From Blasia pusilla (lineage: Eukaryota): a DNA stretch of 64,000 nucleotides. A program made the position numbers and the translations under genes. Location of the stretch: positions 36,084,001 through 36,148,000 of the forward strand of contig CM114271.1 of assembly GCA_050084515.1 (NCBI GenBank), written 5' to 3'. Shown here in pieces: positions 6,591 through 55,144 of the stretch (position 1 is the stretch's first letter; every line of letters starts with the position of its first letter). A model generated the notes under the pieces. It was not told the DNA's origin and did not search any database. It saw nothing but the letters and a program-made list of their open reading frames with translations.

Positions 6591-7930
6591 ATGGCCTCGT
6601 CTAATAAATGTTTCCAGCGAATCAGTCTTTGATGAATGCACAAGAGAACTGAATCTGGAGACATAATCTATGTGCCCCTTTCCTTAGTTGGGATCTTTTG
6701 TCCGATTGGAAATTGGTAAAACATAACTCGAACTGATTATTCATGTTTATCTATTGAGCTTTCTGCTTCAAAGAATGAGTTGGTTTCATCGATTATCTAG
6801 TTTAATGCTCTACATTTAATCACTGCGACTCGGTTGGAAACTTTAACTTTTGTTTCAGGAGAAATTGGTGGAAATCTTGAGTAATACTGTAATAGAGTGA
6901 AGGGCCATGAAGACGAGGTGAGTAGACTACTTTTGAGGACACAAATCCCAATCAATCTTTCTAGCATGAAGTAGTTCTACTTGACGCTTTAAGATGAAGT
7001 AGTTCCCAAGAATTGACGCTTAATATTTCTCTGAATAGACAAGAATTAGGCGCAGATTTTTCAATCTATCACTCGGACCAGCGCTCCCGTTCCACACTTT
7101 GGGGACATAGCTCGAAAGGGTAAAATGATTTACATGATTCTATAGCGCTGATGTCATGTGTTTTGGGTGGAGCGCAAATGCAGCTGCCATTCTTTGAGAA
7201 GGAAAGAGAGAGTGAGGTAGTAGAATCGAGCTCCGAAGAGAGTTAATGCACACTCAAGAGCACTCCGTGTAGCTCAAGAAAGACGAGCGACTCACGATAA
7301 AGGACAAGGATGGTCCGAGTGCACATGACTCTGGTGTGACTTCGGTCCTCGGCGTGGGCATGCGGATGATGGGCAAGGTGAAACAAGACGTAACACCCTT
7401 GAAGTGGAGAATGAAGAATTATGCAAAGAATCTGTTTCATACCCTAAAACACCTTCACCTGGTCTACCATCGAACGAGCTTCTCAAGCGGAGAGCGGGTC
7501 CAAAGCGACTTTCAGATCATCAAGAAAATTCTCTTAAAGCACAACCGGACTCGAATTGTTGGCATCCGAACAAAGAATTGGTAGCGAGATCTTAGAAGCA
7601 CAATCAAAGAGACTCAGAACGCGGTTAGAATTGGAACAGAGACATTCCAAACATGAGTCGAGTTACAAAATAAATTAGCAAACATTCAGGGCCGTGAGTC
7701 CGAACTTCAAAAGCGAGATAGTACTCTGCAAGAGCGCTACAAGAGCAAGTCCGTTAGTCTAATGAGCAAAGAACTTGTCGCCAAAATGTAAACAGAGGGC
7801 TTCTTTGAAAGTCCGAACGACTCTACTAATGAACTTCAGAGTGAGTGAAGCGTGCCAATGAACAAGTTGAAACGTTGAAGGAGCAAAATCACTCGTTGTC
7901 CGAGATCACAGAGAGCGATCGAATCTGAAA
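6591..7930 (+). pseudogene. Coiled-coil-like coding region upstream of the PPR-SMR cargo, possibly the N-terminus of the same gene
   Basis: E/Q/K/L-rich translated fragments (ENEELCKES, ESELQKRD, EQVETLKEQNHSLSEI); present in both CACTA copies; possible GT-AG introns; start position uncertain. Confidence 0.4.
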
Positions 7931-13481: not shown

Positions 13482-13789
13482 AGAAGGTAGTTCTACATTC
13501 CGACTTGTGTCTATGACATGGATGACAAGGAGGCAACTAACGATGGGGCCACATGAGCACCCGGCCTTCTTGCTCTTAGCGTCCGAGAGATGTATGTCAT
13601 GGTAGGTAGGGATAGATGGCTATCTAGAGCTAGAGGGACCTAACCACCAGCTAGGGGGGCGATTGGAGATATTTTGGTTCTTCTTGTCTCGTTGTTTGGA
13701 TGCCATGAGTTAGCATGGGATCATGCGTGTTTGTGTGTGTGTTCGGTGACAGCGATGTATGTTGTGTAGCGATGTGTATGTGCACAACA
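11299..13789 (+). mobile_element. Ty3/Gypsy retrotransposon 3' half with PHD-finger integrase, interrupted by CACTA copy 1
   Basis: RNase H, integrase and PHD motifs; purine tract AGCTAGGGGGGCGA near 13650; short terminal segment ending CACAACA at 13789, homologous to the end of the element at 19861-23990. Confidence 0.88.
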
Positions 13790-16590
13790 GACTCAAAACT
13801 ATATTTGTCTGTGAGGTAAAGGCAGAAGACATTGGCAGTTTGAAGATGTGTTGGTTACTCTTATTGGAGGTGGTGAAGGAAAACAAAAGGCCACCTCCGG
13901 AAATTTATGGGTTCATGGCAGACAATGCATAACTGGGTGGATTGCTATCCGGGAAGTGTTTTGGGGTGGAGAGGTTCAACTTTGAGAGGGAAAGGTCGGA
14001 TGCTTTCCATTGGCAACATCTCAGGACCGGTACACCAAATCTTGCATCAAGGAGAATAAGAGGAGAGCATGTCACTCTACTCCAACGCTGCAAGGACAAA
14101 GAAACCTTGAAGCAAGCCATGGATGCCAGAAGAACTTCATGGGTGGTGGAGGAAGCATGCGATTGAGGGGAAGTACAAAGAGTTTTGCTCTTGGTTGAGT
14201 TGGTGGACTGTATGTATGAGACAATGGGGAAACTTCATGCGGCAAGTGAGTTCACTATTTTGTCTTGTCAAGCTCACGCTTAGAATTGTTTGTAAAGTTG
14301 TAGCTCAGGGTGAGAAGCGTGGGAATTATATGGATTTCAAACCCAAGAAACCAAGCAAGCTGTCGGATGCGACGGGTTGCCCGAGTGTGCAACCCGACAG
14401 AAACCGACGGGTTGCTCGAGTGTGCAACCCGACGGAAACCGACGGGTTGCATCCAAATTTTTGGTGCAACCCGAGTGTGCAACCCGTCGGGACTCGACGG
14501 GTCACAGAGTCGTTGATGGGATGCCTCGGCCTTGCAACCCGTCGGGTTCCGACGGGTTGCAGTATGTGGGTTTAAGGTTACAACACGTCGGGACCCAACG
14601 GGTCGCAGAGTCGTTCATGGGATGCCTCGGGCCTGCAACCTGTCTGGTTCCGACAGGTCGCTTCTTTCTTTGACTCCTGAGTTATTTTCGTTCCCTTCTA
14701 ACATTGCCGTCGTTGCAGGGATTGAACGTTCATGAAAATGCCCCGCCCCAACAGAAGTGGGCGAAAGTGTTCATTCCTCTTGAGGTCGTCACAAGCATGC
14801 CAACAAATTTCACTTGTGGAGGCATGCCAACAAGACCAGGCAAGAGCAATGCTACGATGTCAGCAAAGATCCCATATCTTCCTCACAAAAGGCATAACAA
14901 AAGGAAAGGGGCCGCGTCGATCTCGAGCTCTATGTCGTGGTGGGAGAGATCGGTGATGAAAAAATGTATGTGGAAGCCTTCAACCGGTGCGTGTGAGGAA
15001 CTCCACTTGAGCAAGACGTACACATTGGTGGGGATAGTCGTGGGCGGGTTTCAAGACGTCCCATACAGATGGTGGTAGAGCAGTCCGAGCGGGACTCGTG
15101 GAGACTAGATAAGTATCTTGACTTTAGGCAGGTGAAGAGGCAACATCGAGGAACGAATCTGGTGATTGATTTGGATGAGGAAATTAGGTATTCAGGGACC
15201 CGGACCCGTCCCAAATCCGTGATGGAGTTACTTCTCCAAAATCAGTGAATGTTTTATTTCAAAAGCCCTCCGTTGCTGGAAGTTCGCAACATCCTATCAC
15301 TGGGGTGGTTCAACAATATGGGATTCCGGTAATGGAGGTGGATTGCAACCTAAAACGGTGGCATATATCTCAGAGCAATCCAGGCGTGGACCGGGCAGGC
15401 GAGGATCGATGGCATTAGGAGAGCATGCGGCACTTTCCTAAATAAGAATGCATAAGGATCGGACGAACACCGCCGGGTTTTGGGGACTCAAAACCTTTGA
15501 TCGTTTCACGAGGACCGGGATCAATTGAAGTACTTCTTACGCCCAAATGAATCTTGCGCTTTTGAAGTCTTATCCGCTGCCATTGCGGCTCGGGAATATC
15601 CCCACGATTTGGCCCATCGCCGCAGTACTGAATCGCACTCAAGACGAAGTGGACAATCTTACAAGTGCCGGTTTCAGACTCGAGACGGGGAAGTTCGAGC
15701 ATGTTCGACATTATGAGACCTTCGCATTTCAGTATTCAACCCTAGATTGATGTCAACATGTACCTGAGAAGGTGGATGATCTCAATCCATTATTTTTGTT
15801 TGAGTCTAGAAATGGGGTGAAGAGAAACAGAATGTGCAGCCAACGGTGGAGAGAGTAAAGCTTTAATTGCATCAGATCCGGAGGAAAAATGGAGATCATC
15901 GCCACGGAAGATGTCTTGAGTGGCAATGGAATAGGAAGGATGTATTAGGTCAGGAACAACACTGTAAATTCAAGTGTCACAGGGGGTGTATGTGGTGCAC
16001 ATATGTTGCTTTCCCACATGTTCATGTGATGACTTTGTCCAAAGAGAGACAAGTGGCAAAAGGTATTTCCTTGTAAGCACATGTACTATGTGTTCTTTGG
16101 TAGTTTTAAGAGAGTCGGAGGTAGGAGTAGGAATCCACCAACCATTCTGTCCCTCAAAGAAGTTCGAAGTATTTTAAACAAACCACTTTGAGGATGCAAA
16201 ATGAGGTTTTAGATTGTACTTTTATTTTTTTTCTCAACCTTCACTTTGAGCTTGAACTCTATTCAGCCCCGGGCAAATGACAGATTTTTTCCAGACCTTG
16301 GATGGAAAAAGTGATTGGTTCCACACTTATGATTCCACCGATTTTTCAGTTTTCTAAATTTTGTGCAATTTGCAACTCGTCGGACTCAGAGGGGTTGCCA
16401 AAATATGGAAAGGAAAAAACTGTGGGACTACTTAATATATGAACAAAAAAGTGCAAAAAAATTCAAACAAAATTTTTCCTCTCTTCAACCCAACGGAAAC
16501 TCTCTTAAAAAAAGTATCTATTTCGGTTGAAGGTAGTTTCCTCTCTCCTCTCTCCTCTCTTCCTCTCTTCCTCTTCTCTTACCGCACCTC
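13790..16590 (+). mobile_element. Mutator-like transposon copy 1: 3' part of transposase and right end
   Basis: Homologous to 34744-37543; FMADNA, DAFHW, SWIM finger CSCDDF..CKH; CT-rich end closing in CTCTTACCGCACCTC. Confidence 0.85.
14370..14660. repeat. Cluster of GCAACCCGTCGG-N3-CCGACGGGTTGC palindromes in predicted transposase intron (~14246-14717)
   Basis: About seven full or partial copies read directly; flanked by GTGAGT donor and TTGCAG acceptor. Confidence 0.85.
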
Positions 16591-17914
16591 TCTTCTTGCA
16601 ACTTCCTCAAGATCAACACCATCATTGTCGCATCTCCTCTTCTCCTCCACACTAGCATCTTGCCAACTCATATGTTTCTCTTATGCTAGGTATGCTTTAA
16701 CACACCCAGCTTCCACTAGATCATCCCATCTAGTCAGATGACGGATAGTCTCTATCCCTCATATCATCACTTCTTAAGGAAATTCTAATGATTCATTTTT
16801 AGCTCCAGATACAATAGGCGCTTCTATTTTTACTGCAAAGGTATCAGAATCTAATATTGTAGTGGCAACTCCTACTTGACTTCTGAATAAGCCTTTAATT
16901 CCTCCTCTACCAAAGTTGGTATCCAACGGCCAACGGCATATCATTCTGCCTTGAATGAATCTTCCCATCTTTGAAGTTTACTATTCCATTTTTAAGAGCT
17001 TTTGAAAACTCCTCACATTCTCGACGTTGATGCTCAACACTATCACACCATATACATCTTCTCAAAAAGTTTCTATTTTGCAAAGCAGCACCAACACTAG
17101 GATTCCTATCTAGTTTAAGCTCAACCATTTCTACTCTCAATTCTCTCAAATCTTTCACCAACTCATCTTTAGCAGAATCTTCAAGTTTTGTTGAAACGGG
17201 CTTAGGCAATGGATTTGAAATTGATACCTCTGACTTGAATAGTGCGGTTCTACGTCTACTTTGATTTTTCTTTGTGAGGATAGTAACAGCTTCTTCCACT
17301 TTCTTCCAATTAGTGCTCACACTTCCTTCTTCGGTCTTGTCCGCCAATATTATGAAAAGCTTGTCCTCCAAATTCTCGTCAACCGCTTCAAGGAATAACT
17401 CAATTTTCCTCAAGTCTAGAGTTGGTCTTTTGGAAGACGGAAGCTGAAAAAATCGCTTCTCAAACTCACGCAAAAATTCATTTGGAGTCATTCCCTTCCC
17501 TGGACGTTGCTCTATTCATTCTAAAAAACTCCTCTTAGTCACCCGATCCACATCATCATCGAAGAATTCTCCTTTCATCAACTGCTCACACTCCTCCCAC
17601 AAGGTTGGATTTAGTGCTCTCAACTTCTGTACTTGACTACGAATCTCTGGTATTACAGCTAACTCAAAACTTGACACCATATCACCTTCGGGTACACGGT
17701 TTACCTCCATCTCACAAACGTACTCTCAAACACACTTGGTGATGTTTCTCCCATCAAATCTCCCCAACTTCTTTACAATCGCTTCAAGAGCCCTTGTTGA
17801 TCTTTGCTCTCCTATGTGAAATCCTCCTTGTTGGCTCAACAATGTTGTCAAAGTTTGGAGAAGATCCTCAGCTCCCTCAATTCCTATTGATGAAATACTA
17901 CCATAATTAGTCAT
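16591..17914 (-). pseudogene. gag: Gypsy gag, frameshifted
   Basis: LGRFDGRNITK, EMEVNRV, LREFEKRFFQL, CxxCx4Hx4C zinc knuckle; directly downstream of PBS. Confidence 0.75.
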
Positions 17915-17978: not shown

Positions 17979-17980
17979 TT

Positions 17981-19256
17981 TGTCGTATCGAGAGCCTTTC
18001 TTCGAGTGAGGGCAAGTCTTCTAGCTGCGGAAGACGTGGTCGATGCAAGGTGAACTCTCTAAGAAGTTCTTCTTTTTCAATACAAAATTATTATGTATAC
18101 TCTCCATTCTCTCACAACAGGTATCACAAATGGAAGTGCCGAGGCGATCGCTTCTTCGTAACATCGGATCCCAAAATTCCTATCTATAAAATCCCTATAA
18201 ACTACTTCACGCTTGTCCACGAGGAAGATAGCACAAATAGTGTTAAACCCTACTTGAGCAAGCCTATTGACGTCCATGGATTGCTATATGAGGACATACA
18301 AAGTACAATCCCATGTCCTTCCATATATAACGATAGGAAAAATCACCGGAGTTGGAGATTGCATGACTTGGTTCATGAACACCTCCCCAAAGTGATAAAC
18401 TAAATAGCGAGTGAACCCGTGCCTATCTACAAAGAGTACCTTGACATGATAAGGATTGAGGAAAGGAAATTCGGGCACAACTCGTGTTCCATCTCTATCC
18501 ACGCTTGACAGACATTCTCTACTCTCCTAAAAAATGGGCTTTTGCAGAATTATTCTCCCAGGAGGGTTAATCCACTCTCATTGGGAAAATAACAAGCCAA
18601 ACCATTCACTATTTTAGTATGACTAAACTCCTCTAAGGTGACAAGCCTCTCATCTTCACACACACCACATTCTAGAAACCTCTCAAAGAATAGACCATGG
18701 TCAAGTTACTCTCCCAAGAGGGGTGATCCACTCTCATTGGAAGAGTAAGCAATCCCAAAACCATACACTCAAGAGTGACTCAAACGACTCAAGATGTGAA
18801 ATAGAAGTTGATAAACCCTTGAAGGTTCCTCCTCTTTATATATTCACAAGGGATTCACAAGAGTATGAAATAGAGTTAATCTTATCTTGTGCCATATGGC
18901 TTCCTCTCAAGGCTTAGCCAATCACATTTTGACACAACTAGATTTTCTCTTATATCTTCCAAAATATCTTCTTTTACCCACTTGATATTTTCCAAATTAC
19001 TCCAACTAACCTAGCCACCAACCAAGACTACTTTTGTTTTTCATTAAAGTACCAACCTCACTACTTTATTTTTATGAAGTCATATTTTATTTATTACCTC
19101 TTTTCCTAAAGTTGGGCCCGCATAAAAGAGGCACCATAAAGAAGTTTAAATATGGGAATTTCCTTTCCTTAAGCTAATTTACTTAATACTAATAAAATTC
19201 TATCTAACACTTAATGAGGAAGGAGTTTACACACTAGCTGATTTTACTATACGACA
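17981..19256 (-). repeat. 5' LTR (~1276 bp)
   Basis: 8-bp inverted termini; homologous in opposite orientation to 38769-40050. Confidence 0.88.
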
Positions 19257-19860: not shown

Positions 19861-22800
19861 TGTCGTTCGAATCCACATTATCATACAACATACATCACTG
19901 ACATACCATACTCACATATCTACATAACATAGTCGAGAGCATCCACAAACACAAGTGTACCACAACTGAAATCCGTGAAAGACCTACTGTCATAAAACAC
20001 GTATAGAATCACATACAATCGAGCCAAACCCACTCCATGATGGGAGAATCCAGGTCAAAGCTTGCGGGAACCACCATAGCCAAGAGCTCTACTCACTACC
20101 AAGGCTAACTCCCAACGCAACAGGCTCAACTCAAAGAACTAACTGTTTTTTGAATGCACTCCACATTATATCCTCCAACCTAAGAGCGGGCCCTACTGGA
20201 AAAGTCATCCTCAACTGAGTAACCCCCAACCCTATGTATGAAACTGTATCTCTACCTAGACACTACGGCCCTACATAAGGTATGGCCTCTACTAGCACAC
20301 TATACTCTACGACATAATCCGTATGGTCGTAGAATATAGTATCGTCAGCTGTTGTGCGAATCCACATCGTCATACAACATACATCGCTGACATACCATAC
20401 TCACATACCTCCATAACATAGACGAGATCATCCACAAACACAAGTGTACCACAACTCGCACCCCTAACTGGCGGTTAGGTCCCTCTAACTCCCAAGTAGC
20501 CCTATACATCTACTACATGCTATACACCTTCGTGGGTGCACGAATCAGAAGGTCGGGTGCTAGGTTGCCCCATTGTTAGTCGCACATCTGTAATCCATAT
20601 CATGCAAAGATCAAGTCATCTACCTCTCCTAAGTACATTGAGGACAAACCCACCTTCTAGTAGGAACAACATCCATACGTGGAGTCAAACACATCATGTG
20701 CCAACCCCTAGAACACCGATCACACACCAACATACGGGCTGCGTTACCAGCAGACCCACACAACATGCACCTCAAGTTGGCACGTATCATGGCTAAGCTT
20801 GGGTCAACAGTACCATCCACATTTGGAAGATGACATGGTGCACAATTACGCACATGGTCCTTCCAAACAACTCCATCACGACCCTCCAACATGATAACTC
20901 CATAAGCTAACACCTAGCACTCGTAAAATAGTGCGGCTTGCCATCACATCCAACGTTGTTGGTGCAATTTGCTGCAAATAGACATAGTCCCCCACATGGA
21001 ACCTACGAATCAATGGTCGATAATCTCCACCCCGAATGGTTTCATACCGCAACGTATCCCTGTGTTGAGCAATGGCAAGATTCTCAAAGGCTGCTGGCAT
21101 AACTCTCTGAAAGAGCTCTGCCCGCTAAGAACACACTCTCATCCACATGTGTGGGTCATCAAGGTTCACAACCTCACTACACTCTCGACGAATTTCTGGT
21201 GGCAAGTCTGGATCTCGGCCGTAGAACACAAAATAAGGTGAGAAGGAAGCCAAGGATGCTTGGTGACTGAACCTATACCCTATGGCTAACCATGGCAACT
21301 AAATATCCCAATCTCCAAGATGCCCCTTCTATAGGCCATACTTGCGCAATGCCCTCTTCACCGTCCGAACCACACGCTCAGCCAAACCATCCACCTCTGG
21401 ATGATCTCGAGACGTGGTCCGATGATCAATCAACGCCTTGTCACACAAGACCTGAAACTCACCCTGAAACTTTGTACCCTGGTTTGTCAGCACATAGCCT
21501 GGAGACCAATATTGGTAGGGCACTAGTACCTCCACTAGTACCCCCACTAGTACCTCCATGGGTACCTCCACTGGTATCCCCACTCCGGCTCGTACTCGTA
21601 CCACTCAACGTCGAGCTAGCTGGCATAGTAGGAGCACTACTACCAATACCACCATGGGTAATAGACACATAGCCTAGAGACCAATATTGTCTCCATGCCT
21701 CAATCTCAGCAACATGGTCCTTCCTGAACTCATGGTAATCATCCATGGGTGGTCCCTCCAAGTGCTGAAACAACTCCTTCCAAGCCAAGAAGGGTGTAAA
21801 CAACGTGGCATTCCGCAACATTTGCACATCACACCATGTATCAAACTCCTGCATAAAGTCCTCCAACTCAATGGTGCCCACTGCACCCGAGTATCATTGT
21901 GGTCCCTTCATGGCCCCATATATCCCATCCATGTCCCAAATCAATCGAGCTGCAACACTCGATAACAATGTAGAAGACTTGGTGTTTGGAATACCCTCGT
22001 CCTCCTCTTCATCAACCGTCGGAAGTGGAAAAGGTAGCCGATACCTCAATCCACTCCATGTAAAACCACCACTGTTTGCACCACGGTCCCCAACCAGACC
22101 ACCAGACAGCTCCGTGATGACCAACGCCGATGCCGCACCACCACCAAATTACCACCACGAAGTAATCAAGTGACGTCGATGTCGCTGTACTATTCTAGCT
22201 CTACTAGCTATGGGTGTAGGCAACCTAATCTTTCATCACCACAAGAATCCTCCCATGGTCTACTGGTCATCACTCCAGCCTCACTATTGGTAGCACACAA
22301 GAGTAACACTACTCTGGAAATCAGCGTCAACCCTAAAAATGGGCGCGCAAGCAAGAAGCAACGATGGAGGGGATCCAAACATAGGAAGTCCAACGACAAC
22401 CCTCCAATCGCAAATGGAAATCAAGGTAACACAATCCACCAAACGTGGTGCCCCCTGAATCCACAGAACCCACCACACAATTCTAACGCCATAGCTACTC
22501 GGCAGCGGGTCGATGACGTACTAGTCGGACTCGCAGCACCTGAAAATATCACCTCCATGGAGAGGCTACACCATACTATGCACTAGAGGTCCATCAACCA
22601 AAAACCTACGATGCATAAAGCGCCTAACACATCTCCAAACAACACCAAATGAGCTACACCAGTGTGTACACTGACATAGTTAAGAACTCAGCAGTTAAGC
22701 TTCTTCCAGGCAGAATAGCCCAAACATGGCTGACCAGTTATGCAACACTCAAATCACCAATCCTGCAAAAAGTGCCTCACACCCAAGCAAGCAAGCTTTC

Positions 22801-23990
22801 TTGCTTGCTCCTTGCTCCTTACTCTACCTCTCACGCCCACTCGCCCCGAGCTACCACGAGTTGCCTCGAAGCCTCAAAACGTTGAGAAATGCTCGAGACA
22901 TGCCCCATTCGCCATGCTTTGCTATGGAGAGAGGCCCAACCAGGGCACACCCAACGGGATAGGCGTCTCCAAAAACAAACGAGTCACCAACCAACTAGCC
23001 CCTCCGATCCCCTATCCACCAAAGCCAGACCTTGAGCTAGTCTGCAAAATTTCGATCAGCAATTACGCCACAAATCCTCAACCAAAATTGAATCTGTTTC
23101 AACCAGAATTCAATTGACCACCATAGCTATCTCTCCACAAAAAATCAGCTACAACCGAGCTCTGTACTCTGAGCTAAAAATCAGACAAACTTGCTGTCCA
23201 TACACCTTCAGAATCGCAAATCCGACAGCGCTTCCGCCCAGGCAGAAATCCGAAACGCTCCACACACTCAAGCAGATAGCTTCACATGAGATCACAATAC
23301 AAGTAGCAAAAGGAACCTCTCACCCAGTCTGGATGAACTTCAACAGAGCTTCTGCACTCCAAGCTCTCCACATTAGAAAACCATCGAACACGAACCAGAA
23401 TCTTCAATCCTTGATAACTTCAAACTTCCTAGACGGAATCCGGCAATCTAAAGCGCGTTGGAAAGCTCTTAGCAAGGCGCTTCTTTTCCAACCAACCACG
23501 CACCAAATTCCCACCTCCAACATAGGCCACAAGCCATGAACATCCACGGCTAAGTACACAATCAGCCCTAACCAGATCCTACTGATCCACAATCGAAGCT
23601 ACCATCAATCTACTCTAGTTCTTTGAGTGAAATCCGTGAAAGATCTACTCTCATAAAACATGTATAGAATCACATACAATCGAGCCAAAACCACTCCATG
23701 ATGGGAGAATCCAGGTCAAAGCTTGCAGGAACCACCATAGCCAAGAGCTCTACTCACTACCAAGGCTAACTCCCAACGCAACATGCTCAACTCAAAGAAC
23801 TAACTATTTTTTGAGTGCACTCCACACTATATCCTCCAACCTAAGAGCGGGCCCTACTAGAAAAGTCACCCTCAACTGAGTAACCCCCAACCCTATGTAT
23901 GAAACCGCATCTCTACCTAGACACTACGGCCCTACATAAGGTATGGCCTCTACTAGCACACTATACTCTACAACATAATTCGTATCGTCA
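19861..23990 (-). mobile_element. Internally deleted PHD-integrase Gypsy element with split terminal repeats
   Basis: gag-like ORF 21459-21881 joined to integrase C-terminus and PHD (20629-21500); repeat B at 19967-20347 and 23628-23990; repeat A at 19861-19966 and 20350-20456. Confidence 0.8.
20629..21500 (-). pseudogene. Gypsy integrase C-terminal half plus PHD finger
   Basis: LTNQGTKFQGEF..DHPEVDGLAERVV; AFENLAIAQHRD; CMLCG..MLVCDRCSRGWHMMCLTP..RWVCPQC (complete C4HC3). Confidence 0.88.
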
Positions 23991-25400: not shown

Positions 25401-27749
25401 TCTGGCAGGAGAGAGTAAGAGAGGAGAGGAAGAGAGGAGAATCTCTCTTAAAAAAAAAGGGCCAAATCCGCCTCCTCTCTTCAAAACTTTTTGACATATT
25501 TGAAATTTTCGTTTGCTTTCAAATTTAGGAAATCTTTAGAAGAGAGTAGGTAGTGGTCCACATTTGGCCCTAAAACCTCCTCTTTCTTGGGGCGAAAAAA
25601 AGGAGACATCATAAGACACACCTAAACATTTTTCCATCATTGTCCATGTGAGCCTAAGTTTCTTAACATTCCAGATCGGTCAACAAAAGCAAAGGTGCCC
25701 TTGGTATTTTTGTTGGAGGACCATCCGGATGGGTACCTCTCTTTTGCCTGATTGTTGCTCGCATCATGGCCTCCCCTAAATTGCCCCATAACCAACTTTC
25801 TACATCGGTTATGAATGGTGTCTGCTCAAGACCAACTTTCTGAAATGTGAAAAATCGATCCTAAGGCTCGTAAACGAGAAGTGCACCTCCCAACCCGTAA
25901 GAAAGCTCACCATAAGAAACGAAAGATTTTTAGAAGTGATTTTCTTCCACCCTGCACCCACGACGATCTAACGGGTTGGGAATCCGAAATGGCAATCCGA
26001 CAAGTAGTAGGAATCTTGCACATCTTAGACAAGAAAAAGAAGCCTACAATGGTTGGACGAATGAAGGGGAACGAGCCAAAAGTCAAGAAGCCCGCCACAA
26101 TGCGTCAGAAGTTGGTCTCACCGGGATAGAGTCCCATCACTCAAGCAGTCAACCTGTCGGAATCCGAGAGGTTGCCTAGAAATGGTTAAAAAGTTGCAGT
26201 GGGCAAAAAGCAAAAAGTCGGAATCATACGGGTTGCAGAATTGCAATTTCTGAGTAGCTAAAAGAACACAATCCACAAGTCCAAAAACATATTCCAGAAA
26301 ACTTTTACAAACACCATTATGGGTTGATAAAATCGCCTTTATTACCTCCGAAGGAACTCGAAATGTACATTGAACCTAGTCTATGATTTCTTCACCTCTT
26401 CATCTACAAATTTACTCCTAACTCTCCTCGTGTGCAGTACCAAAGGAATGTCCCGGGATTCAAGTGGCTCCTACGGCCGGTTGTAGACGGGGATAAAAAT
26501 GTTGGCGACCCGAGAGCCTTGGCCCCCCTAGGTACACCATAACGGTCCCATGTAACCTGTCTCGAGTCCCACCGCCTTCCTCGGCGGTATACCTTGTACG
26601 CTCCGCAATGTGACACCTATCCAAGATCAATATCGCTCCGCCCCCGATAATACCACTATGGCAACCGCGGTAGAAGGAATCCAACACGCCGAGAAGAAAA
26701 GAAGCCTCGCTGCGCTTTTACGAGTTGAGGGGAAGGTGCCAAGGGAAGAAGCCCGCCGATCGCCGATCCGAAAGGGTCGATCAGGCAACTGTCGGAATCA
26801 GACAGTTGCCTGGAGGTGGCAAAAGGGTCCGATGGTCAAAAGCGAAAAGTTGCAAGGAGGATAAATCCGACGGGTTGCAGTGGTCATAAAGTGAAAATTG
26901 CAAGCAGGAGAAATCCGACGGGTTGAAAAGTAGAAGACTGTGGAGTACATAGATGATCACATTCGAAAAGACAAAATGATCAAGACAAACATTTACAAGC
27001 ACCACCATCGATCGAAAAAATCTTTTGCTTTATATCATCCAAAAAAGCTCGGAACTGTACATTTGATCTATTCTATGAAATCTTTTGCCAAATTATCAAA
27101 AAACTCCCTACTCCAAACGCTGCAGTCAAGTTGGGTCGTTGAGTTCTTTGAACTCACTCGTTATCGTCCGAGAGCTCTTGCAAAATCACTTTCGGCCTTG
27201 CCCTCCCGATTTTGGGAATCGTTGGAAGTGACGATGGAGTCACTACCAAGGGTGGCTCTGGAACCGAGCTCGGCCGATGGAGAGTTGTACGCCTAACGAG
27301 CCTTCAGATTTTGCCTTTGCCTCCTTGCAAAGGTCAAAGCAGCCTGCGTTCCCTCGAGGCGAGAATGTTCCCGCCACTCGCAAGCGCCTCGATACTCGCC
27401 CCTGAAAGGCCCACTAAGTCGAACACCAAGTCACCCGGCCTTGAGCAGAGCTCGATGAGCGTTGCATCGTGGTGCCGACTTTCCCTTCCTCCCGAAGTGG
27501 GTCTTGTCTTGCATGTAAATTCCGGGGAATTGTACAAACTATCTAAGCTGCACCCATCGAGCATGGATCCACAGGATCCTCGATCTTGAACACCTGGAAA
27601 TTGTGCTTGGGCGAACAAAGCAAAGACACGAGGAGTGGTCCATCTGAAAATCAGCACGAAACAATGTCGAAACTAAAAAAGTCGCCTTGAGAAGATTTTC
27701 AATAATCGACTTTGGATCAACGTCGAGTCCCGACAGGTTGTTTGTCTCT

Positions 27750-27980
27750 GACCAACCGCCGGAACCCGACGGTTGCGATTGCTTTGGGTTTTCCAAGTTG
27801 ATTTTGGTTTTCAGATGCAACCCGTCGGAAGGCGGCGTGTTCCGCCTAGACCAGCCCTTGCTCGCCTGAGAGCAACCCGTCTAATAGCAACCCGTCGGAC
27901 TCCGATGGGTTGCATCCAAAACCAAAATCAACTCGGAAAACCCAAAGCAAGCGCAACCCGCCGGGTTCACGGGTTGCTCT
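27750..27980. repeat. Intronic inverted repeat (~57-bp arms) containing palindrome motifs
   Basis: 27773-27829 is a near reverse complement of 27901-27956. Confidence 0.85.
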
Positions 27981-30093
27981 GTTAAAACAAAAAAACCAGA
28001 TTGGTGATTCTACACATCATTATAAGATAATTGAAATTATTGTACAGAATTGAGCCTTACCCGAATTTGACTCGTCGCGGATCGGAGTGGGTACTTGTTT
28101 TTGATGATCCACGATTGTGCCGTCCTCCACTTTAGCGACCTCTTGACACACTGGAGGTTGAAGAGCTCGTCCTCGCTCCCTCCGATCAACACCAAGAAGA
28201 AGCCCCTGTCACTCGGACAGGCGTGCGCAAAGGAGAACAAAAGTGCAATCTGGTCATAAGTGAGCGGCGATTCCACTCGGTACTTCGTCCGCCGGATTTT
28301 CGCCCCAAAGTCGCAACCCCGAGGGCAGATCGGCGATCAAGAGATCCACCATAACCTCTTCCACCACTCCATTCACCGCCCTGCAGCGTGCCCGTTTCGT
28401 TGGAGCTTCCGCCCCAGCGTTGTCAATTTTTCGATGGCGGTTGTCGATGCTTGAGAATCAAGCCGTTTCACTCATCCAAGAAAGAGGTGAATCAAGGAGG
28501 ACGCTTGTCCGGTCGTTGTTTGTCTCGTGTCTTCCCAAGGATGATGGGTGTATTCTCCTTGGGACAACCGGGCACCTCTCGCTCCGCTTCTCCCTAGTCA
28601 GGGACGGCTTGTCGGGGTTTCTATGACCTCGGATTCTCGTGGCATTTTCTTCGCCGAGGACCTGGTCCGACCCTCTCTCCCTCGCTCGTGGGGACGATTC
28701 CGCCTCTAGCCTCTCAACTTCAGGCTCTCTTTGGGAAGTCTCGGCCTCTGAATTTTTCCCTCCTCGCCTTACCTTTGAGACCCTCGTGGATTTGTCTTTG
28801 GTGTCCCGACCTTGAAGCCAACTCACTGTCTCGTGGGCCTGCTCTTCTACATCTCCTCCGAAGAAGTCAGCCGGACGACATTGGGGATGTCGTCTTGTCC
28901 CGAGGCCATTGCATCATGAAGCACTCGTAAGTCCTTATCCGTGATGTCTTCAAGGTCATTGAAGTCGAGCCAAATGGGGCAATTCTCCACCTCCCAATCC
29001 GAACATGTTCGACCCATCTCCACGCCGTACATGGAGAATATCTCGCATCCCGCGCGGCCCACAATTTCAAAGTCTGCGGTAATTTTCCCCACATACTGCG
29101 TTCTTACATCGGACGAGGTACTGAATACCATCCGTTGGGCAGCTTTTAGTCGAACATTATCGGCCGTTTGCTCTCAGAGATCTCGCTTCTTCTTCGCTTG
29201 ATCCCGTTTGTTACCCTCTACTTCTTCGTCAAGCTCGCCGAGGGAGGACGCAAACCTTGAACATGGTCTTGAATCCTGGGTTTTTTGTTGGCTTGTCCCG
29301 GATGTCGCCGAGCCAAACCTCGTAATCTCCAAAACTTTCAAGGTTTGCTTCGGCGGAATGGGCTCTAATCTTCGAGCTCCGCTTGGACCGCCCAAAGACG
29401 GACTTCCCGACTACCCGCAACGCGTCCCGTAACGGCCATTCGCGTAGCCAATGTGAGATCACCGGATCGACACACCCGGAGGATCCGTGCCGCCTCTTCG
29501 GGCCTCTGCGCCCTCAAGACTAATTTTCACGGGCCGTATCCTCCGAACTCGCTAATCCCGGATAGCGCAAAACGATGCACGCGATCCGACACTTTCTCCC
29601 AATCCGACCATGCGGATCTTCATCCTCTTCCTCTCGACGCTTGATAATTGCCTTGAGCTCCTTGTAGAACTCCGGACCAAGTTCGGGTTGAGAATGCTTG
29701 ATGTATTCTTGCATCTTGCTCGCCGTGTATTTCGTTGCGGTAGATACAAAGAGCTTGATGAAATTGGCGCGCTCAGACGTAGATACCTTCTCCCTCCGCT
29801 CCAGCTCCAGTGCAGCGCTTTTCTTCGCGGCCTGTATCTTCGACGAGCAAAGGATGGTTATGGCTGCATCTTGAGAAATAAACTTGTTTGCCCAGGTTTT
29901 CTTCTTAATCTGAGCACCCTTTGCAAGCATCTGATTGACGAGGGAATCGCCCAAGAACCCCCTGTACTCTCCCGGGTGCGTCGTAAGCCCCTTCCTCACC
30001 CGATCGCAGTCCTGGATCCAATGGTGGGTGACATTCCCTTCCGATACAATCTTACACATCCAAACTCAACCCGTCAGGAAATTACATGGGTTC

Positions 30094-30811
30094 CTGCAAC
30101 CCGTCGGACACTGACGGGTCGTCACAGCTCAAGGTCGGATTCTAGCAACAAGCTAAATGATGCAACCCGTCGGAGTCCGACGGTTTGCATTCAGATTTGC
30201 TAATGGTAGGTAAGCAACTTGTCCGACTCACGGGTTTCGAATCAGACGCTTTTTGATGTTTTTAAGATTGCAACTCGCCGGACTCGACGATTTGTTTGAT
30301 TGAACATAGATTTAACTAGTTTTTTGGCCCAAAGCAAACCGCCGGAGTCCGACATGTTGCCGATAGGCCGCTTAAGAGGTTGTTTTTAAGAATGCAACTC
30401 GCCGGAGTCCAACGAGTTGCATTCTTAAAAACAACCTCACAAGGCGCCCTATCAGCAACCCGCGGACCACGGTTTGCTTTGGGCCAAAACTAGTTAAATC
30501 TATGTTCAATCAAACAAGTCGCTCGGAGTTCGACGAGTTGCACTCTTCAAAAAACATCCTCACAAGGCGGCCTGTCGAGCAACCCGTCGGACTCCGAAGG
30601 TTTGCTTTGGGCCAAAACCTAGTTAAATCTATGTTCCATCAAACAAGTCGCCGAGTCCGAGTTGCAATCTTAAAAACATCCGAAAAGCGTGGAGTCTAGC
30701 AACCCGCTGAGTCCGACGAGTTGCTTTCGCCTAAACAAACCTAACCCATTCATCAATCGAGCAACTCGCCGGAGTCCGACGAAAGTTGCGAAAAGTGTTA
30801 AAGATACTCAC
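30094..30811. repeat. Intronic palindrome array and long inverted repeat centred near 30406
   Basis: TTGAACATAGATTTAACTAGTTTTTTGGCCCAAAGCAAACC pairs with GGTTTGCTTTGGGCCAAAACTAGTTAAATCTATGTTCAA; right-arm unit is duplicated. Confidence 0.85.
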
Positions 30812-32238
30812 GTGTTTATGGCATGCATTGCCATCTCCACCGTCGCCATGTGATGAGGGTATGGGTGAAGGACCACCGCCTTCACGCAGAAATGTGCCTC
30901 CAATGAGTTGGGGCGCCCTCCGCAAACTTGGTCCACGCCATGAACTCGTGATTTCCATCCCAGATGAAGAAATGCGATTCCTTATCCGGCTGAATTCGTG
31001 CCCTCAACTTGCCTTCTCAAGTGTCTGGTCTCGCATCCTCCAAAATGTGTCGAGATTTTCCAAGTCCTCCTCGGTAACAGAGCTTGGGTTCCATGCTCGT
31101 CGTAAAGGCCGAACATAGAAGGGAGGAAAGTCCTCACGATGATGTTGTCGCCGATTGTTTTAGCTTTGCAATGTCCTCGCGGATCAGATTTGTGGACGTA
31201 TTCCATTGTCCTTAATCGGGCAGAGTGGAATCCTCGGGGCGTTGTGGCCCTCCATGAGTGCCATCGCTTTACCACCGTCCGAACAGGACAAGAGGAATAA
31301 GCTACACCTGAAATCCCAATGAATTGCAATTCACATAATTAAAACCGAGAACCTCTCTTACCCGCCGAAAATGGAGTCGGTTTCTTGACCAGCTAACTTG
31401 TGCGAGACAGGGCCGCAAATCGACCGGGAACTCGCCGATCCGATAGAGGTCGATGTCCTCCGCCGGGCTTGAGTCGAATGACCGCTCTCCGCTTCTTCGC
31501 CATGTCCACCATCTCCACGTTGGCGATCCTCATGACCTCGCTGCGCCATCGATTTGAATCGGTGTTGATTCCACTATGTTGATTGTGTCCCCGGACTTCG
31601 TGGGGACATTTCCGCATCTCAACACTTGCGGTTGGACACGCTGGGCTATCGCCAATGGCTATCGCTTTTCCCCGCCGCTTTAGCCAATTTTGCCCTCTCA
31701 CCGACGCGTCCAGGACGCTTTTTTTCTCTTTTCATCGGCGATCCTTTTCTTCAAGGCGTCACGCCTCGGCCTCTTCGTTTCTATTTATCTAGCGCCGCTT
31801 GAACACGTCTCGCGAAGCACTTGGTTGTGCATCTCCGCTTCCCTTTCCCCGCTCCTCGATTTCCCGCCGCTTTCATTTCATTCACAATAACGAGGCCCGT
31901 GAGAAGCCGACGCAGAGTCCTAATGGACTTGGGAGTGAAGCTCCAGACTTGTTGGCTTGTGTTTTTTTCCTCCTCATTTTTTCCGAAATGCCTCCACCTA
32001 TGCCCACAACAAATCCCTTGATCATCGCTTTGCTGATGTCGAGATGGGAGCCTCGTCTCGCCTTGATGGTTAGCTCGACCGCCCCGGATATCGCCGGTCG
32101 AACCGTCTCGCCTGCTCCTCCTATCGACTCGCGATGTGTTGCCGCGTGAAATGCCCCTTCAGATTCGATCACTTGTCGGAGAGTGAGGAGGAGGAATGAA
32201 GATCGCGAAATGAGAAACCGAAATGAGCGATTTCGCCC

Positions 32239-33185
32239 TATTTATACTTTTCAGCCGTTGGTGACCGTTGGGTCCTCGGCTGCCCTTTCGACGCGGCGTC
32301 GTAATGTTACGGAAGTCCGACGTGAAAAATCGCAACCCGCCGGAGTCCGACAGTTGCGCGGCTTTGCCATCCTGGTACGCCGCCACGCGCGCGAGCAACC
32401 CCTTGAGATCGACGGGTTGAGCGCCTCCGCCGCCTTTCGAAAAGAACGCGAGGTACCGCAACCCGCCGGAGACCGACATGTTGGCGCGCTCCGCCATCCT
32501 CGCGAACGCCGCCACTTGCGCGAGCAACCCGCCGGAGACCGACGGGTTGAGCGCCCGCGTTTTCGTGAAAACAACGCGAGGTACTCGCGCAAGCCGCCGG
32601 AGACCGACATATTGCGCGCCTCGCCGTGTTTGGGGCGAGAACGGGGACGTATTTTGGGCAATCCGCCGGAGATTGTTGGGTTGCACGCCTCATCAAGGGT
32701 TAGGAACGATGGCTTCCCGTGCAAGTAAGTCGCCGAGTCCGGCTCCTGCACCACAAGGCGACGCCCTTTCGCAGAACCCGTTGGACGGCGACGGGTTGCA
32801 CGCCGCCGTCTTTGGGCTAAAAGGCGAGGCACCCGCGAACTCATCGGGAACAGACGGCTTGCACGCCTCCGGCATCTTCGAGCAAGAAGGAGCGGTATCC
32901 AGAAAGTCGCCGGAGAGCAACGGGTTGCTCGCCGACAATGTTTAGCAGCGCGCAACCCGTCCGATGCCGACGGGTTGCGTGCTCGATAAGCACCGGGTAA
33001 TTTCGAGTTACCAGACTCCGACGGGTTCCAAGTGATGCGCAACCTCGCTTCCCAAACGGTAACATATTGCAACACAATTGAATGTGTTCTGCACTGGATC
33101 CATTGTGTCGGACAATCTCCCCACCGAATTCATCTTGTCAATAAAAATCTGTCAGAGTATCATGCTTTCCTATTCACTATAAATT
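32239..33185. promoter_or_regulatory. Putative bidirectional promoter: two outward-facing TATA boxes enclosing a palindrome array
   Basis: TATAAATA on - at 32239-32246; TATAAATT on + at 33178-33185; about 11 palindromes, mostly 60-69 bp apart; same layout at 47295-48325. Confidence 0.65.
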
Positions 33186-37543: not shown

Positions 37544-40050
37544 GAGGGTGGTGGATGACAATGGGACAAAAATGCAAGTGCTCCAAGAATTCTATAATTC
37601 TTTATGGGCAGAACACAGAGGTACTTGGGCAACTTTCACCAAGATAAAAGAGAGGTATTGGTGGAAAGGTCTATATAAGGATGTTGAGAGATATGTTGGG
37701 TCATGTGTTCAATGTCAGTTTCAATCAAAAATCATGGTGAGAGATGGACTTAAACCCACGTATCCGTTGTCTATTCATCATCAATGGATTATAGATCTAG
37801 TTGCTATCCCACTAGATCTTTGGGGAATATGCTACTTGCTCCTAGCACGAGAAGAATTGTCCAACTTTGTAGAAGGGAGGGCTTTACGAACTAAAATAAC
37901 AGAGCCTATATGTCATTCTATTCTAAAGGATATGGTTTCTTGATATGGGAGTATTGGGAGAATCCGTGTAGATAGAGGAGAGTTGAATGCGGAGGAAGCA
38001 GGAGAGTTCTTCAAGAGGTATGAAGTCTCGTTGAGATTAACAACCTCCATGAATCCGCAGGCAAACAGCAAGAGCAAAAGGGGACATTTGCTAATCATTT
38101 AAGCATTGGTGAAGGCGTGTGCAGAGAATTATGCTGCTTGGCCTAGATTTCTTTCATTTTCTTTATGGGAAGATGAACCACTCATAGCACCGTTACAGGG
38201 TTCATGTCTACAAAGTTGATGAGAGGTAAAAAGCCGATAATGCCAGCAGAAGGAGATATTCCTACTTGGATGGGTTTGCTCTGGGAAGACGGGCTCAATA
38301 GAGAAGAGCTCCTAGCACTTCGAATGCAGCAGCTAGAGCGGCGTAAAGAAGATTTTGCAGAAGCATTAGTCAAAATGAAGGAAGCAAGGTTGAAAAATAA
38401 GGAGCGCTTCGACAAAACTCATCGACTTTAGAAGGAGCCTATAAGAGAAGGAGATTGGGTCTTGGTGCACGACAACAGTCTCGACAACCAACATAATACA
38501 ATTAAGAAGTTTGCACGTCGTTGGTTTGGTTCATACGTTGTAGTCTTTGCTTTTGACAATGCCACTTACAAACTACGTGAACTAGAAGGTATAGTTCTCA
38601 AGCTACCCATTGTAGGAAAAATGATCAAGATTTTCCGTAGACGTGAGGGATTTCTTGATTTTGATTCAATGTGTCTAGAGGCACAAAATAAATAAGTATG
38701 AGTAAAATAGTAAGAAGTCTCGATATTTTCGGTACGTATAGGAGGATGTGTAGGTTTGGAGGGATGAATATCGTATGGTAAAATCATCTGCTATGTAAAC
38801 TCCTCTATCATTAAGTGTTAGAGAGAGTTTTATTAGTATTAAGTAAATTAGCCTAGGAAAATCAAATTCCCATTTTTAAACCTCTTTAGGATGACTCATT
38901 TACGCGGGCCCAACTTTAGGAAAAGAGATAATAAATAAAAGATGGGATTAGAAAAGTAAAGTAGTGGGGTTGGTGTTTTAATGAAACAAAAGAAAAAAAA
39001 ACTCTCGGTTGGTGGCTAGGGTAGATAGGGAAGTTTGGAAGATATGAAGGGAGTAAAAGAGGATATTTTGGAAGAGATAAGAGATAATCTACATGTATGA
39101 AAATATGATTGGCTAAGCCTTGAGAGGAAGCCATATGGCACAAGATAAGATTAGCCCTATTTCGTACTCTTGTAGATCCTTTGTGAGTCTATAAAGAGGA
39201 GGAACCTTCAAGGGTTCATCACCTTCTACGTCACATCTTGAGTTTCTCGTGTTATCCTTGAGTGTATGACTTTGGGATTGCTTGCTCTTCTAATAAGAGC
39301 GGTTTACCCCTCTTGGGAGAGTAACTTGACCTTGGTTTATTCTTCGAGAGATTTCTAGAGTGTGCTATGTGTGGAGATGAGAGACTTGTCACCTTAGATG
39401 AGTTCAGTCATACTAGAAATAGAGGATGGTTTGGTTTTTTATTTTTCCAATGAGAGTGGATTACCTCTCTTGGGAGAGCAAATCCGCCAAATCCCATTCT
39501 AGAAGAGAGTAGAGGATGTTTGTCTAGTATGGATAGAGGTGGAGCACGAGTTGTGCCGAATTTTCCTTTCCTTAACCCGTACCACGTTAAGATTCTCTTT
39601 GTAGATAGGCAGTGGTTCACTCACTACCTAGTTTATCACTTTGGGGATGCGTTCATGAACCAAGTCATGCAATCTCCAACTCCGGTGATTCTTCCTATAG
39701 TTACGTACGAAAGGACATGGGATTGCACTTTGTATGTCCTTGTATAGCTATCCATGGACGTCAATAGGCCTGTTCGAGTAGGGTTTAACACTAGTTGTGC
39801 TATTTTCCTTATGTACAAACATAGAGTAGTTTATAGGGACTTCATAGTTAGGAATTTATGGGTTTCATGATATGAAGAAGTGATTGCCTCGTTACTACCT
39901 TTCGTGATTCCTGTCGTGAGAGAATGGAGGGTTTAGATAATAATTCTCTATTGAAAAAGGAGAAATTCTTATAGAGTTGGACTTGCATTAACAACATCTG
40001 CTGCAGCTAGAAGGTCCGCCCTTACTCGAAGAAAGGCTCTTCACACGAAA
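37544..40050 (+). mobile_element. Gypsy element 3' part: integrase, PPT, 3' LTR
   Basis: LWAEHRGTWATFTKIKERYWW..SCVQCQ; IDLVA; VEGRALRTK; DRGEL; KFARRWFGSYVV; purine tract GGAGGGATGAA before LTR. Confidence 0.88.
38769..40050 (+). repeat. 3' LTR (~1282 bp) with mutated termini
   Basis: Colinear with the reverse complement of 17981-19256. Confidence 0.85.
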
Positions 40051-42346
40051 ACGTGATCTACTAAACGCACGTTTCCGCAACAACAAAGATTAACGGTCAA
40101 GGAGAGTAGGCGCACAACATCTAAAGTGGAAGGTGGATAAAACCTAGAATTGCAAGTACCAAGCCCATCTTGTTTACATATTTGGTGAATTCCTCCTCAA
40201 TCTCGATGAGGAATCACCTCCCTTTAGCAAGTTGCTATCTATATATTCCCCAAAGATATCCTAAACGTGGAATGGATATCGTAGAATCTTTCCACTATCA
40301 TGGAACTTGGATCTCTAACTTCATGATCTAGCTAGAGATCCAAGTTCCATGAATAGAAGAGATGTAACTTTTTCTATAATGGAACTTGGATCACTAGAGA
40401 TCCAAGTTTCTTCCATTCATCAATGAAGTTTCCTAAATATATGCACTTGATTTGGCTCGTCATGTCCACATCGGATTGATCAACAAATTGCATCTATTTT
40501 GAGCTTAGAAATACCTCAAAATAAGATCCAAAGGTAGTCTAAAATGGAAAATGCTATGTGGATGGTTCATGTGCATGATGGATGAGAGGGTGTTCGGATG
40601 TTGAGCTGGTTTGGTTCAATCCTATTCTCGGGTTGGAGAAAAGAGATTGCCATACTGCAGGTTCAACTCTACTTATATTAGCAGGTAAAGGCAATGTTTC
40701 TCTGGGCACATGTATGATGACTAGAGCTCGGTCGCTTGGGGTGGATATATAGTCAAGAACTTTGAAGGATAATCTTTTCTACAAGAAACGAATATGCTTC
40801 TTGGGATATGGATCATGACTCCTCTAACTAGATTTTGGTGACGTCAAATATTCCTTGCGCTTTCTTGATCGAGGGAATTCATTCAGCACCCTTGGTGTGG
40901 TAGCTTGAGTGACTGATCTAGGTCTCAAAGACAACACATTCTAATCCACGTTCATCCCCTGTGTCACGTCTTTTAGATAGATCCGTGAGATCTTGTAGAG
41001 TTCCTTTGCAAGTAGTGGGGGACAAACTCAGGAGGTCGAGGATGACCTGTTGAGGCCCTAGGAAACCTGAGAGAGCAGGTTTTCCCTTCGTTTTGGCTCA
41101 TTTGGAGCCATATTGAGAAACTTACTATTTTAGGTAAGTATCCTTTTGAATATATGGTCTATTTTCTATTTTTGAAAGTAGCCGTTGACCCCCTACATCA
41201 GGTCAAGAGCCAAGGAGGTGACTTGGGAGCATAGGTTACTATGGAGAGAACTTGGGAGAGGAGAAGGGTATACCTCAAGGAGAGAGATCTTGAGAGCTCA
41301 TTCTCTCTTTGTTGAACCTCTTGACATGAGGAGGTGGAGCTATGGTCCTCCTTGCCTTGTGTGTGTAGCCCAAGTCTCTCATTAGGAGAGTGGGTTTGGT
41401 TGGACATGAGAGAGAGTGCACACCATGGAGAGCTTGGTGTGAGATGTGATGTGAGATCTACTTGTTTTTACAATGAGAGAATGAGGATTTGAGAGCTACA
41501 ATGGAGGAGCTTGCTAGTATTCGTAGTTTGTTGCAGGTTGGGGGACTGTGTAGTCGGCTTCATGGCTCACGAGAGTGCTCATGGGAGCAAGAGCCATTTG
41601 TTTCATGTTATTTCTTGCTGATTTTTTGTTCAAGAGAGTGGCACGCGAAAATGCTGCCCAAATTTTGGTAGAGATTGAGTATGGGGGCGGGTTGCTCCAT
41701 GCCAATGCTCTCCAGAGCACCATGTAGCTCTTTGATTGTTTTTAGAGGTTTTCAATTTTCTTTGGAAGAAATCAGCACGGAAGTGTTGCCAAAATTTATG
41801 TAGGAGAAGAGACGTTGGGACTTACGACAGTCTTTGTCAGTTTTTATTCGAAGGTCCGATTCAAAAAACTTTTTAACCCCATTCTAGATTGCAAAGCTGT
41901 GCAGGGTGTACAATAGACAGTGCGTGATTTGGAGCTGCAAGCAAAAAGTTATGGTCAATCTTGCAAAATTGTCATTGTTAGGCAATTTTTACGGTAAAAT
42001 TGTTCAAACCCTAAACCAGCCTCCGCGTTGGCAGCGGCCGTTTCCGTTAAAGTCATCGTCAATGGTCAACTGTCACCGTGAATGGTCCACTAATGCTGTA
42101 ATTGGTCCACCGTCATCATCAACAGTCCATCGTCCACCGTCCACCGTCCACCGTCAGTTGCCACCGCCGCTAGCTCGCTTTCGAGCGCGTTCGGTCGTTG
42201 TCCGCCATTACCGCCATTACGGAGTGGAAAATCTTCCACAATGACCATTGATTCTTTGACTTGCGCCGCTACCAAGTACTTTATTGTGGCCGCCACTATC
42301 ATTGCAGTTTCGTCATCAAGTAGTGATGGAAAGTGACCTCGGGTTA

Positions 42347-54987: not shown

Positions 54988-55144
54988 GGCAATTCGAGAG
55001 TTTACTTGTTGCCATAGAGTTTCATTCCATTATGCCCAACAACACCAGAATTCACTTACATCCTCGTAACAAAAGTCAATTATTTGAATCATACAAAAAA
55101 AAAAAACACAATGATGAGTACCAAAGAAACAACTATGAATTAAT

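Follow-up and report, generated by a model that had tools for sequence, protein, structure and literature searches.

The minus strand of a 64-kb stretch of DNA, referred to herein as the window and numbered from its first nucleotide, carries at 27068-32172 a long gene within a transposon-like repeat, the last part of which resembles a DNA amino-methyltransferase (MTase) of the beta class. In a three-frame view, the gene appears as a succession of minus-strand open reading frame (ORF) pieces of 181, 94, 108, 151, 67, 99, and 112 codons, along which the frame changes repeatedly. Three short strings singled out in a first-pass annotation of this DNA were recovered on the minus strand, at the positions given there, by reading of the sequence and its three-frame translation: FFIWDGNHEFMAW at 30933-30971, VDLLIADLPSG at 28317-28349, and LIELCSRPGDLVFDLVGLSGASIEALASGGNILA inside 27355-27462. 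The whole MTase-like domain, comprising motif IV, a central region, and the S-adenosylmethionine (SAM)-binding motif X/I, spans 27299-28382 and is interrupted by a putative intron as well as by three or more frame breaks. Motif IV falls on VDLLIADLPSG, with DLPS in place of DPPY, and was aligned both by profile search and by hhalign. Motif X/I falls on TLIELCSRPGDLVFDLVGLSGASIEALASGG at 27370-27462, where the first Gly of GSG is a Leu.

A hidden Markov model (HMM) of the PF01555 family was built from diverse phage methylases, initially from 15 and then from 19 sequences. Phage relatives at ≥89% and ≥76% identity were left out as too close, and a PF01555 search in three proviruses added nothing to the profile. 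The model was run against every six-frame, stop-to-stop piece of at least 10 amino acids in the whole window (3,423 pieces with 111,811 residues). The piece that ranked first, 27337-27672 on the minus strand, contains motif X/I (13.1 bits, E = 0.008 with the 15-sequence model; 13.3 bits, E = 0.006 with the 19-sequence model), and the piece that ranked second, 28257-28457 on the same strand, contains motif IV (3.7 and 4.9 bits, respectively). A piece lying between these two gave a weak alignment (1.1 bits) with the middle of the model. Read in gene order, the three pieces correspond to HMM positions 13-35, 61-122, and 184-209; they are colinear with the family, lie on one strand within 1.1 kb, and show the permuted order typical of PF01555, with motif IV N-terminal to motif X/I. 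In 20 residue-shuffled ORF sets, the best scores ranged from 2.5 to 6.2 bits. A read-through of the domain, with X at the breaks, scored 23.7 bits versus a shuffle maximum of 3.9 bits, and none of 300 shuffles reached 23.7. In an earlier read-through, with piece 1 in a different frame, extension of the domain beyond the frame break after ..ILAS brought no gain (14.3 versus 14.2 bits).

Profile-profile alignment gave a similar picture. Against the 19-sequence alignment, hhalign placed the motif X/I piece on template columns 193-223 (Prob 88.6, P = 2.7e-6), the motif IV piece on columns 22-39 (P = 0.0074), and the central piece on columns 61-110 (P = 0.15). Two weaker pointers came from phage databases. 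The only PHROG match of the C-terminal piece was a DNA methyltransferase family, phrog_3008, with an E value of 0.37, and a tblastn search with the same piece (E ≤ 10) returned 10 phage records, of which the last-ranked was annotated as a DNA methylase. This last record, from a lambdoid phage, encodes a PF01555 protein (1.1e-44) that is identical to the window at 16 of 30 residues in its motif I. The METHYLTRANSFERASE claim of the first-pass annotation, that a gene of a transposon-like repeat contains a beta-class amino-MTase-like domain, is thus supported by the first two of 3,423 ranks, their colinearity, the hhalign result, and scores above those of the shuffled sets.

Several observations weigh against this assignment. 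Membership of PF01555 was confirmed by Pfam for 10 of the 19 profile members, the other nine being assigned by record annotation only. The read-through was joined at points of our own choosing, which inflates its score somewhat; the scan of the whole window is free of such choice. Pfam gave no MTase match on 20 fragments of the gene at E ≤ 10 and was silent on the three single-frame pieces at the same threshold. The curated PF01555 cut-off of 26.7 bits was not reached, and our own HMM is not the curated model. NCBIfam likewise gave no MTase match on 10 fragments. A phmmer search of 1.84 billion representative proteins with the C-terminal piece yielded two matches, both spurious repeat proteins, and phmmer against PDB yielded pheromone-binding proteins only (E = 0.16-0.22), which are irrelevant. 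The 181-aa central ORF had no homologue among longer or similar-length proteins in a protein search. Moreover, the strongest MTase signal spans only about 30 residues. Since Pfam, NCBIfam, and phmmer offered no real match, the likeness to MTases must be regarded as remote.

The same silence of curated libraries and of a billion-scale search, together with a core match of such short length, is what one would expect if these short motifs had no MTase ancestry and had arisen by chance in repeat DNA of high GC content. Against that explanation, the first and second of 3,423 ranks are colinear within 1.1 kb on one strand, neither the 20 whole-set shuffles nor the 300 piece shuffles attained the observed scores, and the hhalign P value for motif X/I is very low; chance alone appears highly improbable. 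From these sequence comparisons, we conclude that the domain does descend, if remotely, from a beta-class amino-MTase.

The motifs on which catalysis and SAM binding would depend are degenerate. Motif IV reads D-L-P-S versus (D/N/S)PP(Y/F/W) in the family: the second Pro (P37), invariant in the 19 sequences, is kept, and the first Pro and the aromatic residue are lost. The SAM loop reads D-L-V-G-L-S-G versus D-P-F-x-G-S-G, with a Leu at G312, a Gly that is invariant in the 19 sequences. As read from the sequence, reversion of DLPS to DPPY would require at least three base changes. Because of DLPS and the Leu in place of the SAM-loop Gly, the domain is most likely a non-catalytic remnant; if it is retained for any function, this would be to bind DNA or a partner. 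The first-pass annotation had left a choice between an enzyme writing on the element and an inactive DNA-binding protector, and the inactive option is the better of the two. The Asp-first motif and the nearest phage matches suggest an adenine-type MTase as the ancestor. Among the differences listed between the window and contigs of other copies (see below), well-supported private changes occur at 28351 and 28352, two codons away, and none inside the DLPS codons, a weak hint that the degenerate motif is common to the family; the DLPS and GSG-Leu changes are probably family-wide too. Counting against such a generalization, the motifs were read in one copy, in which family-wide loss and local decay are not separable.

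The gene at this locus is dead, as indicated by many stops, frameshifts, and inserts resembling miniature inverted-repeat transposable elements (MITEs) in two intron-like intervals. With so many stops and frameshifts between its pieces, the copy at 27068-32172 is a pseudogene, so that this locus neither writes nor protects anything. The window also has private indels at two sites, 28526 and 29597; they distinguish it from almost all of the covering contigs in three public runs (X5, X7, and X9), but from only a minority in a fourth (X1). A single spliced gene had been proposed, yet the motif pieces differ in frame, are separated by stops, and cannot be joined as one spliced ORF in this copy. 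All three of the proposed GT..AG intervals (31361-31308, 30811-30051, and 28060-27644) do exist as putative introns. Only 28060-27644 is in frame across its junction, with phase 0 on either side, and the alignment to the MTase HMM continues through this junction; the other two run into a stop directly after the acceptor in this copy, so that only one of the three introns is consistent with the reading frame.

The features of the gene can be followed from its 5' end as below. A TATA-box-like string, TATAAATA, at 32239-32246 on the minus strand, a putative promoter element by its consensus, lies between a palindrome array and the first ORF pieces. The 5' part of the gene (31362-32172) consists of ORF pieces in three frames, with no recognizable domain and no relevant family match. 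The interval 30051-30811 contains nested hairpin or MITE-like inserts rich in a 12-nt palindromic motif, GCAACCCGTCGG, with inverted repeats and a 129-nt tandem unit. A long, central, exon-like stretch (28061-30050) holds the pieces of 181, 94, 108, and 151 amino acids in shifting frames, with no known domain, and is followed by the phase 0 interval 27644-28060, which houses a 230-nt inverted-repeat insert at 27750-27979. This insert and one at 30183-30791 are small, MITE-like inverted repeats built from GCAACCCGTCGG. Contigs of three runs (X1, X5, and X7) skip 601-616 nt within 30182-30806, that is, other copies are devoid of 30183-30791, which marks a large part of the middle "intron" as having been inserted later.

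The repetitive nature of the locus was apparent when contigs of four public runs, from three organisms, were aligned to 26500-33000. All 30 bins of this segment were covered in all four runs. In run X1 alone, 30,587 contigs aligned at 80-100% likeness, of which 6,891 were ≥99% identical, 10,449 were 95-99%, 10,326 were 90-95%, and 2,921 were below 90%. The stretch is a multi-copy repeat. A second feature is the motif GCAACCCGTCGG, most copies of which form the arms of 27-nt palindromes, and which occurs 45 times in the window versus 0.13 times expected. Its matches cluster directly upstream of the gene (32331-33029), downstream of it (25990-26930), inside the two larger intron-like intervals, and further away at 14.4, 35.4, and 47.5-48.2 kb. 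The upstream array, with nine of the 45 matches, is directly 5' of the gene and is composed of units of about 126 nt (32331-32495 and 32457-32625 match at 80.6%). The 3' flank at 25990-26930, in which the palindromic motif recurs in complete and in half form and which also contains a 48-nt tandem unit, may be the other subterminal region. The repeat would extend roughly from 25.99 to 33.03 kb. A search for terminal inverted repeats (TIRs) around 25.3-26.3 and 32.6-33.4 kb found none, the two sides sharing only an 8-12-nt palindrome motif, and no target site duplication (TSD) was found for the element that carries the gene. A separate 67-nt tandem array (5.4 units, 47460-47819), with a 27-nt palindrome in each unit, precedes a copy, at 48.2 kb, of a neighboring gene-like repeat described below.

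Such an arrangement bears on the possibility that a fragment of a host methyltransferase gene was captured in the manner of Pack-type elements and amplified passively, with no role for the element. Spliceosomal-type putative introns, one of them frame-consistent, would fit a host origin, and degenerate motifs with heavy decay fit a lack of selection. A host PF01555-type enzyme is also on record for at least one land plant, namely DN4MT1 of Marchantia, according to a preprint (bioRxiv 10.1101/2021.02.12.428880). On the other hand, the gene and its TATA-like string lie directly behind a palindrome array, as expected of a gene that belongs to the element itself. Capture seems improbable.

A DGxHR or GxxR box with a conserved Arg is a hallmark of ParB and sulfiredoxin (Srx). 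The string FFIWDGNHEFMAW at 30933-30971 had been taken as the core of a ParB domain, written as "DGNH." with a dot after the His. The residue behind that dot is a Glu, so that the window reads DGNHE at the position of the ParB/Srx Arg. In the six-frame pieces of the window, DG.H occurs 18 times and DG.HR not at all. With an HMM of 12 phage ParB N-domains, several of them from true ParB-MTase fusions, the piece with FFIWDGNHEFMAW scored -2.3 bits (rank 1044 of 1819), and hhalign against ParB returned P values of 0.58 and 0.18. The X-joined N-terminal region scored -1.6 bits, and 47 of 300 shuffles scored as high. No ParB/Srx (PF02195) profile match was found in Pfam, NCBIfam, or PHROGs. With the Arg absent, no profile signal, and DG.H at the level of chance, the ParB identity of this string was not supported. 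It should be mentioned that the ParB-like domain of certain red-algal transposon proteins was detected only by HHpred, at E = 0.29, on consensus proteins (bioRxiv 10.1101/2025.02.11.637652); failure to detect such a domain in a single decayed copy does not, therefore, prove that it is absent.

The assignment of the repeat to Mutator-like elements (MULEs) fared no better. Eight neighboring ORFs, four of them from a gene at 33.5-35.5 kb and the others from its copies at 14.1 and 48.4-50.0 kb, had no MULE, MuDR, SWIM, or Transposase_mut match in Pfam at E ≤ 0.1 or E ≤ 10; the remaining ORFs in the same scans were retrotransposon-related. Nor were MULE-type domains found on the 20 fragments of the 27068-32172 gene. 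A search of the ESM Atlas with a neighboring 204-aa ORF gave a best score of 0.76 and no family. The only long inverted repeat found (1.28 kb, 83.5% identity; 17980-19254 and 38771-40051) encloses 22 kb, of which 19.5 kb lie between the arms, including pieces of retroelements; its flanks beyond the arms do not match, and no TSD of 9-11 bp was found beside it, only two misplaced 7-mers. As none of these searches yielded a transposase domain, a TIR of the element, or a TSD, "Mutator-like" is unproven.

Thus, the proposal from which this analysis started, that a phage-type ParB-MTase fusion serves as an accessory gene of a Mutator-like element and writes N4-methylcytosine or N6-methyladenine, or else shields the element, is improbable as a whole. 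Its MTase-like half is present by HMM, read-through, and hhalign. Fusions of this type are frequent among phages, with 613 phage records matching the N-terminal, ParB-containing part of a methylase from a Wolbachia phage; the palindrome arrays beside the gene are reminiscent of parS logic, and a failure to see ParB here is weak evidence in view of the red-algal precedent. The other half of the proposal meets with DGNHE in place of an Arg-containing box, with the poor scores of the N-terminal region, with the lack of a MULE transposase domain and of a TSD at the long inverted repeat, and, as regards writing, with degenerate catalytic and SAM motifs in a pseudogene. Of the broader idea that a prokaryote-type module became an accessory gene of a plant DNA transposon, what stands is an MTase-like domain in a transposon-like repeat; ParB and the Mutator class do not.

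The nearest enzymes, PF01555 (N6_N4_Mtase) proteins encoded by "DNA methylase" genes of phages and prophages, share with the window the order of motif IV, central region, and motif X/I, as well as the identity at motif I noted above. The window differs from them in having DLPS rather than DPPY and LSG rather than GSG, and in scoring below every curated threshold. In addition, its domain is interrupted by an intron-like interval and is part of a much longer eukaryotic gene.

The closest parallel, judged by description, is found in a red alga. According to the preprint (bioRxiv 10.1101/2025.02.11.637652), giant Plavaka (EnSpm) elements of Bostrychia carry accessory genes, among them PAG2, which combines a PF01555 methylase with a SET domain, and PAG3, which combines a ParB-like N-terminus with a 2-oxoglutarate (2OG) oxygenase. 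Next to PAG3 are inverted repeats in tandem arrays. The authors state that homologues of these genes occur in Mutator and Zisupton elements and that, owing to such genes, the families had at first been filed wrongly as MULEs. The present repeat is similar in having a transposon-borne PF01555-type domain, inverted-repeat arrays next to the gene, mostly degenerate copies, and a risk of being misfiled as a MULE. It differs in having one gene rather than a three-gene cassette, a host that is land-plant-like to judge by Transposase_21 and PPR, and no SET, 2OG, or ParB signal on the fragments of the gene. With PAG2 and PAG3 already published, the novelty of the finding is lower than the first-pass annotation assumed.

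These similarities would allow the gene to be related to the PAG cassette of red algae, in which case a kind already known would be present here in land plants, a lineage of hosts new for it. A PF01555-like domain with palindrome arrays beside the gene is in keeping with this idea, and so are the published combination of domains and arrays and the history of misfiling. On the other hand, Pfam gave no SET, 2OG-oxygenase, or ParB signal on the 20 fragments, and the only EnSpm-type transposase ORFs of the window (Transposase_21, 101.6 bits) belong to another block, itself duplicated, at a distance of more than 20 kb. A direct relationship to PAG is unlikely in our view, albeit worth keeping in mind.

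Two other groups of eukaryotic genes invite comparison. DIRS1-type retrotransposons, according to Iyer, Zhang and Aravind (2016; PMC4738411), encode an amino-MTase domain that is inactive, with substituted catalytic and substrate-binding residues. The likeness to the window lies in a transposon-encoded amino-MTase domain with substituted residues, and that of DIRS1 is thought to bind rather than methylate; it differs in belonging to another MTase clade, PCIF1-related according to the same report, and in residing in a retrotransposon polyprotein that lacks introns. Active host enzymes of the PF01555 type are described for bdelloid rotifers (N4CMT; PMC8885841) and for Marchantia (DN4MT1; bioRxiv 10.1101/2021.02.12.428880), the former being stated by its authors to have no eukaryotic homologues. 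They resemble the window in having a prokaryote-type, permuted amino-MTase domain within an intron-bearing eukaryotic gene. Unlike the repeated, degenerate, transposon-associated pseudogene described here, these host genes, whether single or in tandem, are active and have an intact (T)SPPY. Cytosine-5 methyltransferases are also reported to be borne by retrotransposons (PMC5890265). A literature search found no report of a PF01555-type gene in a land-plant transposon.

Taken as a whole, the observations are best explained by a decayed gene of a transposon-like repeat with an MTase-descended, most likely non-catalytic tail, a reading that we consider reasonably probable. According to this reading, 27068-32172 on the minus strand would be a decayed copy of an internal gene of a multi-copy, transposon-like repeat in a plant-like genome, and the last 230 or so codons would descend from a circularly permuted, beta-class DNA amino-methyltransferase of the PF01555 type, a kind common in phages and bacteria. 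In intact members of the repeat, the protein may act on its own element, and the flanking arrays of 27-nt palindromes would be obvious candidate sites for it. A bolder version, which we regard as speculative and rather unlikely, would have the gene function in self-recognition by a high-copy DNA transposon family of a land plant: a DNA-binding N-terminal part, diverged beyond the reach of profiles, would read the element's arrays of 27-nt palindromes and would be joined to an amino-MTase fold of phage origin, which would mark the element or protect it from the host's 5-methylcytosine silencing, such that one polypeptide would be the counterpart of PAG2 and PAG3.

PF01555-type amino-methyltransferases are rare in eukaryotes, bdelloid N4CMT, Marchantia DN4MT1, and red-algal PAG2 being the cases we found in print. 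A degenerate domain of this type in a plant-like repeated element would add a lineage and would show that the connection between accessory genes of transposons and folds for DNA modification is not confined to red algae. It would also provide a concrete target for the question of whether transposons use dead methyltransferase folds for self-recognition or protection. Since the locus is dead and the signal remote, the value lies in the lead to intact members rather than in this sequence itself. Transposon accessory genes built on a DNA-modification fold are a known kind, of which the 27068-32172 gene is a variant of moderate interest.

The remainder of the window is rich in transposable elements and plant-like, with a Tnp2/Transposase_21 ORF (101.6 bits), a pentatricopeptide repeat (PPR), a copia pol, and a Ty3-type integrase followed by a PHD finger. 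Beside the MTase-like gene lies a plus-strand, gene-like repeat present as decayed copies: 33095-34885 matches 48233-50066 (80%), and 34732-37515 matches 13778-16576 (91.6%); its ORFs matched no family. Toward the ends of the window, 1-7488 and 52571-60037 are direct copies, 93-100% identical and about 52.5 kb apart, each with an EnSpm/CACTA-type transposase gene (Transposase_21, 101.6 bits, and Transpos_assoc); they are the product of a segmental duplication or else a single large element present twice. A 202-aa ORF on the minus strand at 16907-17515 has a CCHC zinc-knuckle pattern, presumably gag-like, with nothing above noise in Pfam. At 13008-13481, a PHD finger (E = 1.7e-11) was found in an ORF downstream of the pieces of Ty3-type integrase, and this region could represent a retrotransposon that encodes a chromatin-reader domain. 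Finally, two 300-nt direct repeats (19967-20266 and 23628-23927; 96% identity, 3.66 kb apart) surround a strongly C/A-skewed stretch and look like the long terminal repeats of a small retroelement.

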